A stretch of DNA of 22,694 bases from Candidatus Thorarchaeota archaeon (GCA_048882485.1 JBHLRP010000040.1:6004-28697); one strand, 5' to 3'. Positions 2,422 through 16,626 are shown, numbered from the stretch's first letter. Numbers and translations: made by a program. Notes: generated by a model from the letters alone, not told the origin.

Positions 2422-2462
2422 AATAGAGTCATCGGCTCAGGAATGCGCTCGTTGTCATTCTT
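2422..2462 (-). repeat. Inverted att-like site; contains an exact 12-bp copy of tRNA-Gly(GCC) nt 1-12
   Basis: Plus strand 2445-2456 GCGCTCGTTGTC equals 3759-3770. The minus strand reads AAGAATG-ACAACGA-GCGCATTC-CTGAGCCGATGACTCTATT, which aligns with the tRNA 3' end and trailer TCGAATC-CCGGCGA-GCGCACCA...TTCAGCCCTATGACTCAATT. Confidence 0.7.
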
Positions 2463-2514
2463 ATTCCTAATGTAGTTTCTAGGAGCGCGGACGAAAGGGA
2501 ATCATTCCTCTGAA

Positions 2515-3543
2515 TCATTGATATCGATTTATCCTCCAGAGGACTGATGCCAACAGCTGGTATTGATTCCAAACATGTCCTGGTCTTATTTCAAAGCCTT
2601 TTTCCTTCAGACCTAGACTGTAGGCGATTGATGATCTTAATTTCTTGAACTCTCTGAAGACTACGAAAGCATACACTCGATGCTCAACATATACACTCGA
2701 TTCAGCACTGGAAATCTCCTGAATAAACTCTCGAAGCTTTGTTCTATTGCACTGCTTATCCTGTAGCCATTGAGTCTTGAAACGTTCGATCGATTTTGAT
2801 GGTTCACCCCAAGGAGTTCGTTTTCCTTTATGCTTTTTTTCAAATTGTTTGCGAAAGAGAGAGAGTTGCTTGAAGTGTTCTTTGACTTCCTTATTGGTGA
2901 GTTCACAGAACAATTGATCGAAAGATTTTGGATATGGTGGTTCAAGTACTAACACACGAGTTTCATTCCTTAGCAGTCCATCCAACAGAGTGATGATTTC
3001 ATCTTCTAGAGTTTCGACAGCTATTATCCAACGCAATGGATTGGATACAATCTTGGTCAAACGTGTCACATCCTCTATGTCTATGTTGAAACCACGCCCC
3101 AAAAGATAACGTTCAATGTCCTTAACAATCGTATTTCTGTGCCTCTCAATAAATGGTTGAATTTCAAGTACAGGTGGACCCTCCCATTGAAAACTGCTAT
3201 CATCAGTTGCTTCAAGTGCTGTTTCTATCCATTCTACCTCGATTGCTCTCAATTTCCTGAGTGCACGAATATAGTATTTGTTACACATGGCATGTTCTAC
3301 ATAGAGTAATTCTGGAAGAATAGATTCCAAGTAGTTGTGTTTGGTTTTTGAAGCTCCTGAACGTATGCTTCTGAATCGCATAATGGATTTGGGAAGTCGT
3401 ATAGTAGTGGAGTATTCTACGCCCATGACCTGAGGAATTCTTTTTTCATCTTGGTCTGTCCATGTAATTTCAAAACATGTTCCACTGACTGAGAAGTCTT
3501 TCAATTCATTTGACCTTTTCTTCCCATCTTCTTTACTAACCAC
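2515..3543 (-). CDS. Hypothetical protein (orphan, AT-rich, 342 aa)
   Basis: Long ORF with protein-like composition, visibly more AT-rich than the flanking housekeeping genes. No family recognised and the start codon is uncertain. Confidence 0.7.
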   Translation of the reverse strand: MVSKEDGKKRSNELKDFSVSGTCFEITWTDQDEKRIPQVMGVEYSTTIRLPKSIMRFRSIRSGASKTKHNYLESILPELLYVEHAMCNKYYIRALRKLRAIEVEWIETALEATDDSSFQWEGPPVLEIQPFIERHRNTIVKDIERYLLGRGFNIDIEDVTRLTKIVSNPLRWIIAVETLEDEIITLLDGLLRNETRVLVLEPPYPKSFDQLFCELTNKEVKEHFKQLSLFRKQFEKKHKGKRTPWGEPSKSIERFKTQWLQDKQCNRTKLREFIQEISSAESSVYVEHRVYAFVVFREFKKLRSSIAYSLGLKEKGFEIRPGHVWNQYQLLASVLWRINRYQ

Positions 3544-3725
3544 TCCTATTTTCCCTCCGTTCTTAAGTTGTTATGCATCGTTATGAAAGAACTACCACTT
3601 CCTCTAATCAAGACTTATCTTGGAGTTGTGTTCTAGAAGGGGAGTCATTGCTGTTTCTTCTGTTGATGTTCCTTAATTGTATATTGACAATAAGGGGTCG
3701 TGCGTAGTGGCACCAAAGCAGTATC

Positions 3726-3732
3726 TTTAAAA
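3726..3732 (+). promoter_or_regulatory. TATA-like box of tRNA-Gly(GCC)
   Basis: TTTAAAA lies 27-33 nt upstream of tRNA position 1. The TCC tRNA has TTTAAAT at a similar distance. Confidence 0.55.
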
Positions 3733-3758
3733 CAATCCCAGATAGGAAAATCCTCTAA

Positions 3759-3896
3759 GCGCTCGTTGTCTAAAGAATGTCAGTTTCTGATGTTCTGACT
3801 AAGGGGCTATGATGGATCCCTGCCAATGCGCGGGGGTTTATCCCTCGGAACCGTAGAACGGATCCGGCCCGGGTTCGAATCCCGGCGAGCGCACCA
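3759..3896 (+). tRNA. tRNA-Gly(GCC) with two introns (3773-3802 at position 14/15; 3826-3858 at 37/38), CCA encoded
   Basis: Removing both introns gives GCGCTCG TT GTC TAGGGGCTAT GAT G GATCC CT GCC AC GGATC CGGC CCGGG TTCGAAT CCCGG CGAGCGC A CCA, a clean cloverleaf colinear with the intronless tRNA-Gly(TCC) at 16552. Both introns show bulge-helix splice geometry. Confidence 0.93.
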
Positions 3897-3996
3897 CTTC
3901 TTCTTCAGCCCTATGACTCAATTCTTCTAAAGGCAAGTCTTAGGAAGCCCTTATCAACAACTACCAGGAATCAAACACAAAATCTTGGTGAAGCTG

Positions 3997-4173
3997 ATGA
4001 GCCACAAAAGAGCAATAGTTTGGGCAGTAGCGGGAGTCTTCATAATGTTCTCGTTCTTCGAGCTAATGAATTTGGCATTCAGTAGTGGAGACATCCTTAT
4101 AGGACTCGTATTGACACTAATAGCAGCGGGAATTGGCTTCTATATACTAGGATACGGCTTTGACATAGAATAG
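3997..4173 (+). CDS. Small two-TM membrane protein (cassette 1)
   Basis: Two hydrophobic segments. GGTGA RBS before ATG 3997 (the track starts at TTG 3985). Confidence 0.65.
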   Translation: MSHKRAIVWAVAGVFIMFSFFELMNLAFSSGDILIGLVLTLIAAGIGFYILGYGFDIE

Positions 4174-4194
4174 ATAGGCTAAATGAATTCATAG

Positions 4195-4216
4195 TCGATT
4201 CCCAACCAGCGCACTA
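4195..4216 (+). repeat. Degenerate tRNA-Gly 3'-end repeat R1
   Basis: TCGATTC-CCAACCA-GCGCACTA, 17/22 identical to 3875-3896. Confidence 0.7.
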
Positions 4217-4234
4217 TTCCCCTAATTGTGGTTT

Positions 4235-5317
4235 CTATTTTACCAGACTCTCAAAAAGCCGAGCTGATCTATTATCCTGAGGATCAGTTTCAACTGCCTG
4301 CTTCAATGCTTCCCGTGCTTCCTTGATGCGGTTCTGCTTTAGCAGGGCAATTCCAAGGTCACACCAGGCAGCTGTGAGTGACGGGTCAATTCCAATTGCC
4401 GATCTTATTGCAATTTCCGCTTCTTCGTATTTGCTTTGAGCGAGCAAGCATTTGCCCAATGTGTGGGGGAAGCCAGCATATTCAGGGGACTCTTCAGCCA
4501 GTTTCCTATACTTGGCTTCAGCTTGGGGCATGCTTCCCAAACCACTCAATGAGATAGTGAACAACTGCCTAGCTCTAGGATTAATTCGACCCAGTTCTGC
4601 TCGTTTAGTCGAGAGGTCTATTAACCCCATCTCTTCAAGCTTTACCCCAAGTCTATCGATTGCAAAGTCAGTAAGTGGCTCAATGCTTATTGCTTTCTCA
4701 TATGCCTCAAGGGCTTCATCCAACATGCTTTGCATGAGCAGGACAACTCCTAGTTTGACCCACACTACGTAGCTCCGGCTGTTGAATTGAAGGGCTTTCT
4801 GATAACTATGGATAGCTTCTTCGTATTTCTGGTCGCGTTGTTGAAAATCGGCCAACTTCTCCCACTGAAATGAATCATCTGGATGGGTTCTCACGCTTTC
4901 TTCATAGGCTTCCTCTGCTGATACTTCAAGACCTAGCTCAGCAGATAGCTCAGCAATGTGGTTCCATGATGATGTGTCATCTGGTTTTCTAGAAACTGCT
5001 TCGCGAAAGCATTCTATTGCCTCAATCTTGAGGCCTTCTGACATCAAGAAGAAACCTAGCTGCCTCAGGGCGTTGGGACTCGCTTCATGAGTCCGAGCAG
5101 CCTCTCTTAGCATGGTCTTGGCAGCCTCTCTTTTACCATGATTGTAAAGGAATATTGCGTAGGAAGTCAAACCCGCCTCGAATTCCGGATAAATAGATGT
5201 CAATTCTATATAGGTATCCTCAGCTGCTCTGTGATCTCCTTTCTGTTCAAACTCAATGGATTTGGTCAAGAGTCCAAATGCTCTTTCATGTCGTATCCAA
5301 TTCCGAATCCTACGCAA
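4235..5317 (-). CDS. Tetratricopeptide repeat (TPR) protein (cassette 2)
   Basis: Recurrent roughly 34-aa units such as WVKLGVVLLMQSMLDEALEAYEKAISIEP and WCDLGIALLKQNRIKEAREALKQAVETDP. Confidence 0.9.
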   Translation of the reverse strand: MRRIRNWIRHERAFGLLTKSIEFEQKGDHRAAEDTYIELTSIYPEFEAGLTSYAIFLYNHGKREAAKTMLREAARTHEASPNALRQLGFFLMSEGLKIEAIECFREAVSRKPDDTSSWNHIAELSAELGLEVSAEEAYEESVRTHPDDSFQWEKLADFQQRDQKYEEAIHSYQKALQFNSRSYVVWVKLGVVLLMQSMLDEALEAYEKAISIEPLTDFAIDRLGVKLEEMGLIDLSTKRAELGRINPRARQLFTISLSGLGSMPQAEAKYRKLAEESPEYAGFPHTLGKCLLAQSKYEEAEIAIRSAIGIDPSLTAAWCDLGIALLKQNRIKEAREALKQAVETDPQDNRSARLFESLVK

Positions 5318-5403
5318 GGCCTATTCTTCCAGTGATAGCATTGGATTAGTAGCATATAGATTATTGTGAGCGGAACTTGATGCATCCGTTACAAGCCTAT
5401 GAA

Positions 5404-5430
5404 CCGGGTTGGAATCTAGAGGGCGCACTA
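5404..5430 (+). repeat. Degenerate tRNA-Gly 3'-end repeat R2
   Basis: CCGGGTTGGAATC-TAGAGG-GCGCACTA, 21/28 versus 3869-3896 with one gap. Followed by ATTCTCCTTCAGTTGAGTCAAT, which resembles the tRNA trailer CTTCTTCTTCAGCCCTATGACTCAAT. Confidence 0.8.
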
Positions 5431-5456
5431 ATTCTCCTTCAGTTGAGTCAATCCGC

Positions 5457-6098
5457 TCAAGTTGATTGAAGTGACAAAGTTATTTCATAGAACTCTGGCA
5501 TCAAGCCGGTTTGCCAAATCCGAATCTCCTGAGGGATTCCCGTGTCTAGCTCTACTTCTCCCTCCCAGCCATATCCACCATCATAATAGAAAGACAGGAA
5601 CCCAATAACGAATAGATCATTCTGAAAGTAGGAGAAATGCGTGTCGCACGAATACCCGTAGTCACCAGGGTCTGATTGATCAGGATAGAACCTATCCAGT
5701 GTGAACCAGCCACCAATAGGCAGAAAGCACCGTGAAATGGCCTCGTTGATGAAATCCGTTGCATTGCTGCCAATGGTAGTTCCATTCTGATGAACAATCG
5801 GAAGGACTATTGTCGACTTTGATGAGTCCAATACCTCGTCGATGAATTCCGTTTCATTCCAATCATTAGACAAGTCAGGAAGTTCGGTTATCTCAACAGT
5901 CACGAGCGTGTTGTTCAATTCGATGTAGGGGGAAGATGTCCGTAGAACAGTGACTAGGAATGTAAATGTGTTTCCAGTTTGGACATTCCATTCGAATGAG
6001 GGAGTCGGCGGGTAGCTGGTCATAGCAAGCCAAGAGGCCACAAGAATAATGGCTATCAAGCCAGCTGCAAAGGCTTTCCTGTAATTTCGATTCTGCAC
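5457..6098 (-). CDS. Hypothetical secreted or membrane-anchored protein (cassette 3)
   Basis: Basic N-terminus followed by a hydrophobic helix, then a beta-rich acidic domain with several N-x-S/T sequons. GGGAG RBS upstream of the GTG start. Confidence 0.8.
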   Translation of the reverse strand: MQNRNYRKAFAAGLIAIILVASWLAMTSYPPTPSFEWNVQTGNTFTFLVTVLRTSSPYIELNNTLVTVEITELPDLSNDWNETEFIDEVLDSSKSTIVLPIVHQNGTTIGSNATDFINEAISRCFLPIGGWFTLDRFYPDQSDPGDYGYSCDTHFSYFQNDLFVIGFLSFYYDGGYGWEGEVELDTGIPQEIRIWQTGLMPEFYEITLSLQST

Positions 6099-6170
6099 GC
6101 GACACTCCCTCTGTAAATAGTCTATTTGAGAACAGTGTTTTCTGTATTTCTAATCGAAAGCATTACTTTC

Positions 6171-6193
6171 TTCGAATCAGGGCTTGCGCACAA
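6171..6193 (+). repeat. Degenerate tRNA-Gly 3'-end repeat R3
   Basis: TTCGAATC-AGGGCTT-GCGCACAA, 18/23 versus 3874-3896. Followed by CCTCTT (tRNA: CTTCTT). Confidence 0.8.
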
Positions 6194-6297
6194 CCTCTTG
6201 TTTTCCTAGAATCATCGATACGTTATTTTCATCTTCGAATGAGTGCCTAATTTGTAGCAATAATAAGCCTTCAAAATCCAATGGGGATTGAAGTGAG

Positions 6298-6780
6298 ATG
6301 TCTTTTCGGTATACTGTGAGAGTAGGATATTTCCTGCTTGTTCTAACCCTACTATCGCCCTTCAGCGCAATGATCCAAGCCATAACTGAAGATAATACCA
6401 CAATTGTGCTACTTGCGCCCTTGTGGCAGTACATATGGCACAGCACATTGCCAGTTTATTTTGTATTCTCTCCATACGGTTTGCTATACTTTCCATACTA
6501 TGGTTTGAGTGTGTATATCTCGTGGGTAGCTTACAATACAGCCCGTAGGCAGAATATTGAAAGAAAACAGTATGCATGGAGATTAGTCATCATAATAGCT
6601 CTTCAGATTGCAGTGATACTGCTAATTCCACCCTTTAGTGGGGACCCTCAGCCCGTGAATATTCCACTGCCTATAATGGGCGTACTGGGACTTCTTCTTA
6701 CAAACTATACTGTGAGAAAGCTAACTAGTCCATGGGAAAATCAAGAGGTCTTTTCTGAATCAGAGAAAACTCATGCATAG
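6298..6780 (+). CDS. Hypothetical multi-pass membrane protein (cassette 4)
   Basis: About four hydrophobic segments, with an IPLP motif before the last TM. Confidence 0.8.
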   Translation: MSFRYTVRVGYFLLVLTLLSPFSAMIQAITEDNTTIVLLAPLWQYIWHSTLPVYFVFSPYGLLYFPYYGLSVYISWVAYNTARRQNIERKQYAWRLVIIIALQIAVILLIPPFSGDPQPVNIPLPIMGVLGLLLTNYTVRKLTSPWENQEVFSESEKTHA

Positions 6781-6786
6781 CAAGTA

Positions 6787-6810
6787 GTTCGAATCTCTGT
6801 GAGCGCACCA
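6787..6810 (+). repeat. Degenerate tRNA-Gly 3'-end repeat R4
   Basis: GTTCGAATC-TCTGTGA-GCGCACCA, 21/24 versus 3873-3896. Followed by ATTCTCATTCACCGTCCTATG (tRNA trailer: CTTCTTCTTCAGCCCTATG). Confidence 0.9.
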
Positions 6811-6862
6811 ATTCTCATTCACCGTCCTATGCAGGATAACACGTATATCATGAGAGCGTGAG

Positions 6863-7312
6863 ATGTCTGTTATGAATAAGCATCTTCTCCACATGGCTGC
6901 TCGTGTGTGGCTGATTGAAACGCTGTTCTCGATATTGAATTTCTTCGTTCTCATGAATCTCGTCTATGAACCAGCGTGGGGTGAATTGGTAGCACACCAG
7001 ATAGGGATGTCGACAAGAATTGTAGTTATCGCTATTCTCGCATATATGCTACTTCGATATGTCCAGGAATACGAAACGAGAGACCTTGTTCATGTAGGGT
7101 TGCTCTGGGTTGGACTGGAGCTATTGTTCGAATGGGGTGGCAGTCTATTGGTTGGGCGATCTGTAGAAGAAATTCTCATTGGATGGAACATCTTTGCGGG
7201 CTACATTTGGCCCTATGTACTACTCACCTACCTTCTATCCAATCTTGTAATAGGTTTAGCTTTCCATCCAGGGAAGAGAACAGCTGGTCATAGCTCCGAG
7301 ATAAGAGATTGA
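6863..7312 (+). CDS. Conserved hypothetical four-TM membrane protein (cassette 5)
   Basis: Four hydrophobic helices with AHQIG, GLLW-x-x-L-x-L-x-FEW and WNI-x-x-G-x-IWP motifs, reminiscent of a widespread uncharacterised prokaryotic family (recognised from memory, not searched). Confidence 0.8.
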   Translation: MSVMNKHLLHMAARVWLIETLFSILNFFVLMNLVYEPAWGELVAHQIGMSTRIVVIAILAYMLLRYVQEYETRDLVHVGLLWVGLELLFEWGGSLLVGRSVEEILIGWNIFAGYIWPYVLLTYLLSNLVIGLAFHPGKRTAGHSSEIRD

Positions 7313-7342
7313 CGATGACTTGATACGAACTTCTTGTAGCTC

Positions 7343-7364
7343 TCGAATCCCGATGAGGACACCG
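7343..7364 (+). repeat. Degenerate tRNA-Gly 3'-end repeat R5
   Basis: TCGAATC-CCGATGA-GGACACCG, 17/22 versus 3875-3896. Followed by TTTCTCACTTCATTTGATTC. Confidence 0.75.
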
Positions 7365-7475
7365 TTTCTCACTTCATTTGATTCGTCAACCAACCAATAT
7401 GGGTAGATTGTGATTGCTAGGGCGATCCTATGCAAGATTGAAAAGGAAGTTGGCATCTAGTGCTCTTTTGGCGAG

Positions 7476-16551: not shown

Positions 16552-16626
16552 GCGGCCATAGTCTAGGGGTTATGATCCGAGCCTTCCAAGCTCGTAACCC
16601 GGGTTCGAATCCCGGTGGCCGCACCA
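16552..16626 (+). tRNA. tRNA-Gly(TCC), intronless, CCA encoded
   Basis: GCGGCCA TA GTC TAGGGGTTAT GAT C CGAGC CT TCC AA GCTCG TAAC CCGGG TTCGAAT CCCGG TGGCCGC A CCA. Confidence 0.97.

Follow-up and report, generated by a model that had tools for sequence, protein, structure and literature searches.

Single-gene cassettes between worn copies of a tRNA-Gly(GCC) 3' end in a Thorarchaeota genome: probable att-type scars of a tRNA-anchored array

In Dehalococcoides, several islands are arranged in tandem behind a single small-RNA gene, ssrA, and are bounded by 20-bp direct repeats of the 3' end of that gene (McMurdie et al. 2011, PMC3146451). Insertion was mapped to the T-loop, and the content varies by strain; 16 islands carry a serine-recombinase (CcrB-like) module, 15 islands without an integration module were read as cis-mobilizable elements, and the islands are multi-gene, 15 of them holding 38 rdhA genes (PMC3146451). 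The locus described here, which lies in a 22,694-nt stretch of DNA (the window) from a Thorarchaeota MAG (G000, 90.5% complete), has the same layout: several units follow one another downstream of a tRNA-Gly(GCC) gene, and copies of the 3' end of that gene bound them (Table 1). It differs from the Dehalococcoides islands in that its host, an Asgard archaeon, has such arrays at several different tRNA genes, the cassettes of the window are single-gene, and no recombinase module was found in the cassettes examined or in the genome.

The locus also shares features with four other kinds of system. At the tRNA sites used by tyrosine integrases (Williams 2002, NAR 30:866, cited in PMC8813620 and PMC3146451; archaeal review PMC8371274), the identity block extends from the tRNA interior to its 3' end, which restores the gene on integration, and the displaced copy stays at the far end of the insert, as is the case here. 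Unlike at those sites, there is no integrase in cis, the cassettes are not flanked by the halves of a split SSV-type integrase, and the elements are far smaller than the viruses or plasmids concerned. Integron arrays likewise consist mostly of single-gene cassettes in a row, each ending in a copy of the site and re-ordered between strains; here, on the other hand, no IntI was found (PF00589 unmatched), the anchor is a tRNA gene rather than attI, and cassette genes lie on both strands. Streptococcal cis-mobilizable elements, which are ICE/IME relics mobilised by the integrase of a neighbour, are att-bounded segments without a recombinase of their own that form tandem accretions at a tRNA 3' end; the array is alike in this, except that no helper element is visible. 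The same term was applied to Dehalococcoides (PMC3146451). Finally, the Heimdallarchaeum elements (Wu et al. 2022, PMC8813620) are also Asgard elements integrated beside tRNA genes, including tRNA-Gly, but they measure 8-44 kb and have integrases, homing-endonuclease homologues or giant genes, and no mention was found in that paper of arrays in which worn tRNA ends separate single genes.

Table 1. Features of the tRNA-Gly(GCC) array; coordinates are those of the window
Feature	Coordinates	Strand	Description
tRNA-Gly(GCC) gene, array anchor	3759..3896	+	Two introns, encoded CCA; read by eye against the tRNA-Gly(TCC) of the window
Site 1, reference 23-mer	3874..3896	+	The tRNA's own T-loop, T-stem 3' strand, acceptor 3' strand, A73, CCA
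Full identity block, tRNA and copies	3869..3906	+	T-stem 5' strand (CCGGG) through CCA, plus 2-10 nt pyrimidine-rich trailer
Cassette c1	3897..4193	+	62-aa ORF, 3985-4173 (+); present in G000 and G011, absent from G005 and G010
Copy c1R	4194..4216	+	6 mismatches, 3 in spacer
Cassette c2	4217..5408	-	TPR protein, ORF 4235-5317 (-)
Copy c2R	5409..5430	+	7 differences including a 1-nt deletion; upstream CCGGG kept
Cassette c3	5431..6170	-	213-aa secreted or anchored protein, ORF 5457-6098 (-)
Copy c3R	6171..6193	+	5 mismatches, 4 in spacer
Cassette c4	6194..6787	+	160-aa membrane protein, ORF 6298-6780 (+)
Copy c4R	6788..6810	+	3 mismatches, all 3 in spacer; two common to G005
Cassette c5	6811..7341	+	149-aa membrane protein, ORF 6863-7312 (+)
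Copy c5R	7342..7364	+	6 mismatches: 2 spacer, 3 right arm, 1 left arm

The anchor gene was not called by ARAGORN or Rfam. Its introns lie in the D-loop (approximately 3773-3802) and the anticodon loop (approximately 3826-3858), and the former is absent from the same gene in relatives. The pre-tRNA folds better than 200 of 200 shuffles (z -3.97), and no second Gly-GCC gene is called in the G000 genome. A sequence-only reading of this DNA had described six sites made of two arms around a short spacer, and all of them are present on the + strand exactly as it listed them, with 7-nt spacers at 3875, 4195, 6172, 6789 and 7343 and a 6-nt spacer at 5410; in window order, the spacers read CCGGCGA, CCAACCA, TAGAGG, AGGGCTT, TCTGTGA and CCGATGA. 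The 7-nt-spacer pattern gives six matches against 0.30 expected, a count reached by 0 of 100 shuffles, and the sixth match, at 16605, is a genuine tRNA-Gly(TCC) gene. The gapped site at 5410 is weak by itself (at least one match in 28% of shuffles); relatives have a near-perfect copy at the orthologous cassette junction. Once mapped on the tRNA, the "left arm" corresponds to the T-loop and the "right arm" to the acceptor end with CCA; the "spacer" between them covers the 3' strand of the T-stem and the inner acceptor. What is truly palindromic at the site is the T-arm, CCGGG-TTCGAAT-CCCGG, and the proposed left arm falls in its loop; Williams reportedly treats the T-arm as a natural palindromic core around a 7-nt loop. 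The identity block is a 39-nt exact repeat in G011; CCGGG is kept in 12 of 20 copies from relatives, and metagenome contigs part from G000 before 3865-3871 and after 3896-3906.

The cassettes of the window span approximately 0.3-1.2 kb with one gene each, the largest in relatives being a 3.8-kb operon, and their genes are cargo, not recombinases. Among the relatives, the order of the units is tRNA-c1-c2-ABC operon-c5 in G011, tRNA-c2-c4-c5 in G005, tRNA-c2-c5 in G010 and tRNA-ABC operon-WD40 in G004, so that c2 stands beside differing neighbours in three relatives; within its genus, c3 was found in G000 only, and a homologue (65% identical) adjoins the tRNA in another genus (G020). Similarly, metagenome contigs show the tRNA joined to c2 (3896 to 4218) and to c4 (3898 to 6196, in contigs from two runs), a c2|c5-like joint, and many differing sequences after +2 to +10 and before CCGGG. 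Cassettes are gained, lost and re-ordered exactly at tRNA-end copies, among congeners and in natural populations, and the earlier suggestion of cassette shuffling is strongly supported by both sources. The units are bounded by co-oriented direct repeats of the tRNA 3' end, and they are present, absent or re-ordered between strains with breaks at the repeats, as in tandem att-bounded islands. Young junctions are perfect tRNA-end copies (0 mismatches in G011, G004, G013, G015 and G016), and old junctions decay. Tandem copies are not peculiar to this gene; tRNA-end copies also follow other G000 tRNA genes, including C6, C7, C20, C26, C63 and C82.

No candidate enzyme emerged from the profile searches. 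In the 90.5% complete G000 genome, the tyrosine recombinase profiles PF00589 and PF16795, the serine recombinase profile PF00239 and PF01797 were all unmatched. PF00589 was also unmatched in G011, G002, G005, G010 and G013, which are incomplete genomes; G004 and G016 have a single match apiece, and no tRNA was called within approximately 10 kb of either. In c1-c5, the ABC operon cassette and the WD40 gene, no recombinase domain was found. A virus-borne recombinase may be the source of the joining activity.

Based on the results presented above, we favour, with a probability of roughly 0.55, the explanation that the five downstream sites are dead att-type scars, i.e., duplicates of the tRNA-Gly(GCC) end in a tRNA-anchored, integrase-less cassette array. 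The sites would be non-functional duplicates of the last 23 to approximately 40 nt of the gene, each marking a junction left by a small cassette without a recombinase, either through insertion at an identity block or through recombination between blocks; in effect, they would be attR-type scars of a tandem array. The joining would be conservative site-specific recombination by an enzyme that acts in trans or is not yet recognised, and its likely core would be the T-arm palindrome; that the searches identified no recombinase counts against this reading. The palindrome is intact in 0 of 5 G000 copies versus 12 of 20 in relatives (Fisher p 0.04), and at all five secondary G000 sites it was lost by substitutions in its 3' half, which is rich in G/C and CpG, and in the acceptor bases next to it. 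Decay may simply be fastest in this G/C-rich segment; alternatively, the survivors may be sites knocked out in the segment that matters, which would persist because live sites recombined away.

To see where the changes fall, the 23 nt from T54 to CCA were scored against the tRNA with positions unweighted. Copies c1R to c5R have 6, 7, 5, 3 and 6 mismatches, 27 altogether, and 16 of these fall within the 7-nt spacer (p 0.0018 by a binomial test; p 0.002 by permutation of the best 7-nt window). The contrast between conserved arms and a hypervariable spacer therefore stands in G000. It does not extend to relatives: the unbiased scan of 11 related genomes gave 20 more copies, whose 48 mismatches are spread evenly over left arm, spacer and right arm (16, 12 and 20; p 0.83), and even in the six copies with at least four mismatches only 9 of 28 lie in the spacer. 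This test was set beforehand, and uniform mismatches in a wider set were the outcome that the sequence-only reading itself had named as speaking against it. At copies of other G000 tRNAs, a hand tally gave no significant central excess (9 of 20, p 0.12). Because the contrast is unseen in the 20 copies of relatives, it is a property of the array in the G000 lineage only and not of recombination-site design. The remaining observations on decay were borne out: the fourth copy is the best conserved, and mismatches show no gradient with distance, either in the G000 array (Spearman rho -0.41, p 0.49) or in 23 pooled copies from 11 genomes (rho 0.24, p 0.27). An age gradient is lacking because inserts and deletions occur beside the tRNA and inside the array.

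It is possible, though we think it unlikely, that the spacer excess is due to chance and look-elsewhere effects (many arrays and a post hoc window), helped by a G/C-to-A/T bias and multi-base mutation events, and that the sites are ordinary neutral scars. There are only 27 mismatches in five sites, p rises to 0.011 or 0.024 when G/C positions are weighted 2x or 3x, G000 alone has several such arrays, and the copies of relatives are uniform. In addition, neighbouring changes such as GG to AA may have arisen together in one event, so that the effective number of mismatches would be smaller. Against this, the spacer share differs between G000 and relatives (Fisher p 0.006), and at each of the four positions that G000 shares with G011 the differences lie in the spacer (combined p 6e-5). 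Three junctions that have the same neighbours on both sides, two between G000 and G011 and one between G000 and G005, give a combined p of 0.007; at c4R, position 6800 is T in G000 and C elsewhere. In the c1R region, G000 and G011 differ at 5 of 161 nt, 3 of them in the spacer (percentile 0.009), and the c1R of G011 has a tRNA-identical spacer within identical flanks. Metagenome contigs hold three allelic states of c1R at 4204/4205/4207, forming a series from tRNA-like through intermediate to the G000 state on near-identical backgrounds, and the X6 contig differs from G000 at 2 of 588 nt, one of which lies in the c1R spacer. The central excess also survives the G/C weighting, and neutral decay alone fits these clustered differences and the c1R series poorly; these points weigh against the favoured explanation as well.

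The break points leave room for another role of the spacer. Comparisons bound the exchange only to the interval from the T-loop to approximately 10 nt past CCA; therefore, the 7 nt may be the exchange zone. It is improbable, in our estimate, that they are the cleavage or exchange zone of an unrecognised system, neither tyrosine nor serine recombinase, which serves several Thorarchaeota tRNA genes and makes the segment a mutational hot spot through repeated processing or selection to disarm sites. If true, this would account for the stepwise c1R series and the clustered differences from the nearest relative.

The model of the sequence-only reading itself, in which TCGAATC and GCGCAC(CA) are maintained recombinase-binding arms and a 6-7 nt overlap is exchanged without identity (Tn916- or integron-like), so that each recombination reshuffles or mutates the spacer, is improbable. 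The local spacer excess in G000, the c1R alleles with the same flanks and different spacers, and a crossover interval that includes the 7 nt speak for it, and relaxed identity is known for some tyrosine recombinases (PMC8371274). However, the uniform mismatches mean that in relatives the arms decay at the rate of the spacer, and by inspection the arms are not inverted repeats, as TCGAATC and the reverse complement of GCGCACC match at only 1 of 7 positions; maintained protein-binding arms are not supported. Homology-tolerant strand exchange fares no better: every young junction has the spacer of the tRNA itself, and recently formed junctions in relatives show it on either side, so that nothing points to recombination between unlike overlaps. 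None of the diverged spacers turns up again at another, non-orthologous site in G000 or in 251 Asgard genomes, and therefore no donor for the odd spacers is seen. The G000 genome also has no match to a tyrosine recombinase, and the five copies do not fold like attC sites, with no attC-like hairpin in 76-nt windows on either strand (z -0.15 to +0.90).

A homing or RNA-guided nuclease that cuts the tRNA-end sequence, with repair copying cassettes in, is very unlikely. Copies mutated in the cut zone would escape re-cutting, so that changes would concentrate there; the stepwise c1R changes would fit such escape mutations, and no site-specific recombinase was found. On the other hand, c1-c5, the ABC operon and one WD40 gene have no nuclease domain, no tRNA-end sequence was seen in the 200 nt before or the 300 nt after the three TnpB-like G000 genes, the functional tRNA keeps an intact target, and relatives keep many intact copies side by side. 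The suggestion that every cassette arrived with the 3' end of its own, different or foreign tRNA, which draws on the fact that real tRNAs vary mainly here while keeping the T-loop and acceptor end, is already largely refuted and was rejected, since none of the five spacers occurs in any G000 tRNA or, across 251 Asgard genomes, in any match to the frame GTTCGAATC-N7-GCGCA (a frame that fits the arms of c4R only, the other four copies being tested by spacer alone), and orthologous junctions in close relatives carry the spacer of the host tRNA.

For the array of probable att-type scars, the consequences are twofold. The six-site architecture fails as a general rule, which is relevant before binding or recombination assays are undertaken on the proposed arms. 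The larger comparison, in turn, reveals that an Asgard archaeon has a live cassette system anchored to a tRNA gene, with one-gene units and no visible recombinase; its site is now precisely defined as CCGGG through CCA plus the trailer, and the natural series of intact and disabled sites provides material for finding the enzyme and mapping the exchange point.

The six sites that the sequence-only reading had described as conserved left and right arms around a hypervariable 6-7 nt spacer are present exactly as listed. The first belongs to a tRNA-Gly(GCC) gene, of which it forms the 3' end, and does not repeat some nearby tRNA; it is followed by five worn copies, c1R to c5R, each at the downstream end of the cassette of the same number. 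The gene was missed by ARAGORN and Rfam because it carries two introns. Its assignment is based on comparison with related genomes, in which the same gene lacks the D-loop intron; brute-force intron removal followed by ARAGORN gave many mutually incompatible calls. No second Gly-GCC gene was called elsewhere in G000, the genome of the window. In every tRNA gene of G000 the CCA is encoded and followed by a pyrimidine-rich trailer, and the array copies likewise carry such trailers. The limits of the block common to the tRNA and its copies were set where metagenome sequences diverge, since many unrelated sequences begin 2-10 nt past the CCA or stop just before the T-stem CCGGG.

The D-loop intron itself resembles a scar left by a mobile insertion, as judged from the relic 5' end, orphan ORF, replacement exon and intron arrangement in G000. 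In the relatives G011 and G005, an intron-less tRNA 5' half comes immediately after the end of a PALP gene. The insertion found only in G000 further holds a new promoter-like TTTAAAA and a 30-nt 'intron 1'.

Features of the tRNA-Gly(GCC) locus, its copies and the arrays of relatives (window coordinates unless a fetched locus is named)
Feature	Coordinates	Strand	Content
D-loop insertion	2445-3802		~1.3 kb
Relic	2445-2456		first 12 nt of tRNA, then pyrimidine-rich stretch
Orphan ORF in D-loop insertion	2515-3543	minus	342 aa
tRNA-Gly(GCC) gene	3759-3896		
Replacement 5' exon	3759-3771		
Site 1	3874-3896		tRNA 3' end
Common block	~3869 to 3901-3906		
Left arm			T-loop + C61
Spacer			T-stem positions 62-65 + acceptor positions 66-68
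Right arm			acceptor positions 69-72, A73, encoded CCA
Copies c1R-c5R	4194-7364		
c5R predicted fold	7343-7385		CGAATC with GATTCG ~30 nt downstream
3.8-kb ABC cassette, locus L014	1661-5431		double-HTH regulator, ABC ATPase, ABC-2 permease, two small ORFs
3.8-kb ABC cassette, locus L016	2757-6575		same
Chimeric copy, locus L022 (G015:C120)	~4130-4180	minus	tRNA-Gly(TCC) anticodon-stem 3' strand, variable loop, T-arm + tRNA-Gly(GCC) acceptor end
G005 array			tRNA-c2-c4-c5
G011 array			tRNA-c1-c2, 3.8-kb HTH + ABC-transporter operon, c5
G010 array			tRNA-c2-c5
G004 array			tRNA, directly the ABC operon as in G011, then WD40 gene

The proposed shuffling of cassettes is borne out by the congeners, in which the same cassettes occur in other subsets and orders with the break points at the copies. 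The joints tRNA|c2, tRNA|c4 and c2|c5-like also occur in contigs of independent metagenomes from sediments and mangroves. Where a junction is young, it reproduces the block exactly, one example being a 39-nt exact repeat in G011. Insertions beside the tRNA are those of c1 (G000, G011) and, in G004, of the ABC operon; insertions within the array are those of c3 (G000) and, in G011, of the ABC operon. Near-perfect tRNA-end copies flank the 3.8-kb cassette in both of its positions. The genes within the cassettes are cargo and comprise a transporter operon as well as genes for a TPR protein, a WD40 protein, a barrel-like secreted protein and small membrane proteins. Contig joints that go back from 5371 to 3870 and from 5403 to 3869 were considered as excision circles; a perfect c2R copy fits them equally, and they were not counted.

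Within G000, the excess of spacer mismatches is real. When the 23-nt stretch T54 to CCA was scored without positional weighting, 16 of the 27 mismatches of the five copies fell within the 7-nt spacer (p 0.002 in a permutation allowing the best 7-nt window anywhere; 0.011-0.024 if G/C positions mutate 2-3 times faster). As had been claimed, no trend with distance from the tRNA was found; a decay gradient is in fact not expected, because new cassettes have entered beside the tRNA as well as within the array. Avoidance of restriction sites does not account for the spacer loss, since G000 shows no depletion of CCGG, CCCGG, CGGCG and words like them (observed/expected 0.87-1.10). Separately, GATC is strongly under-represented (0.53, the lowest among all 4-bp palindromes), a possible sign of a restriction or repair system specific for GATC.

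The contrast between arms and spacer does not extend to a larger set of sites. The regions 3' of the same tRNA were fetched from 17 related genomes and scanned by edit distance alone, with an edit distance of 7 taken as the noise level from opposite-strand matches. This gave 20 further copies in 11 genomes, whose 48 mismatches are uniformly distributed (16 left, 12 spacer, 20 right; p 0.83), the outcome that the sequence-only reading had itself named as refuting it. In the relatives' copies with at least four mismatches (n=6), the spacer holds 9 of 28, and in the copies after other G000 tRNA genes (contigs C6, C7, C20, C26, C63, C82 and C103) it holds 9 of 20 (p 0.12). The other refuting outcome, copies that are exact ends of different tRNAs, did not occur. 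None of the spacers of the five copies was found in any G000 tRNA, and all five are absent from the T-loop-N7-GCGCA matches in 251 Asgard genomes, where what fills this frame is limited to natural variants (CCGGCGG, CCGGCCG and CCGCCCG among them). An origin from other or foreign tRNAs is thereby largely ruled out.

Of the earlier interpretation as a recombinase site, the shuffling and a local hot spot stand, whereas the maintained arms and the homology-tolerant overlap do not. The two arms do not mirror each other as inverted repeats (1/7 positions). A palindrome is formed instead by the T-arm, whose loop contains the left arm and whose stem takes up half of the spacer; both palindrome halves are kept in 12 of the relatives' 20 copies versus none of the five in G000 (p 0.04). 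There is also no sign of exchange between unlike overlaps, because the spacer at young junctions is in every case that of the tRNA itself. Tyrosine and serine recombinases and Y1 transposases (PF00589, PF16795, PF00239, PF01797) are unmatched in the 90.5%-complete G000 assembly, where a XerA-type recombinase was likewise not seen. PF00589 is matched in only 11 of 31 family genomes and is unmatched in several relatives bearing fresh insertions. Of the integrase genes in G019, G012, G021, G004 and G016, only that of G019 adjoins a tRNA (Ser-GCT), with no exact repeat of at least 18 nt around it; no tRNA was called in the 12-20 kb fetched around each of the others. TnpB guides aimed at tRNA ends found no support, as the flanks read at three TnpB-like genes contain no tRNA-end sequence. 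None of the copies folds like attC; the single-strand fold predicted at c5R is no better than those of shuffled sequences.

The differences from the nearest relative, G011 (96% identity to G000 over the tRNA-to-c2R stretch), again fall in the spacer. It differs at 4/4 shared positions, each in the top 0.4-4.6% of 7-nt windows (combined p 6e-5 for all four; 0.007 when restricted to the three junctions whose neighbours agree on both sides, of which two are G011 comparisons and one is a G005 comparison). At c1R, three of the five differences in a 161-nt alignment are in the spacer. Metagenome contigs carry an intermediate c1R allele in a background differing from G000 at 2/588 nt; consequently, at least two separate hits occurred in the same 4 nt. 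A templated, quasi-palindromic origin of these changes was considered by inspection, and the 5-bp complement 20 nt downstream is too weak. T-loop G/A57 was dropped as a crossover marker, as it lies in a CpG and may be a recurrent mutation. We read the G000 spacer differences as loss of site function, either through decay that would proceed fastest where the core is rich in G/C and CpG, in one of its halves, or because disabled sites would be the ones that survive. Less probably, the spacer segment is where an unknown enzyme cleaves or exchanges strands.

Copying of tRNA ends is genome-wide in G000. Several other tRNA genes have copies of their 3' end, in the same orientation and with 0-6 mismatches, 0.3-5 kb downstream, in arrays on contigs C6, C7, C20, C26 (three), C63 (two), C82 and C103; those of tRNA-Leu(GAG) are at +498 and +844. 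The chimeric copy in L022, at which ARAGORN calls no tRNA, suggests from its sequence an exchange within the T-arm common to both Gly tRNAs. The array does not qualify as an integron. Among described systems it most resembles the tandem ssrA islands of Dehalococcoides, which have 20-bp 3'-end repeats, T-loop insertion and strain-specific content, many without an integration module (PMC3146451). The present case differs in that the host is an archaeon, the units hold one gene, several tRNA genes serve as anchors and no recombinase was found. In mangrove and other metagenomes, at least 12 different sequences begin within 10 nt of the CCA after this tRNA (window 3896-3906), and the cassette pool at this single tRNA site is large.
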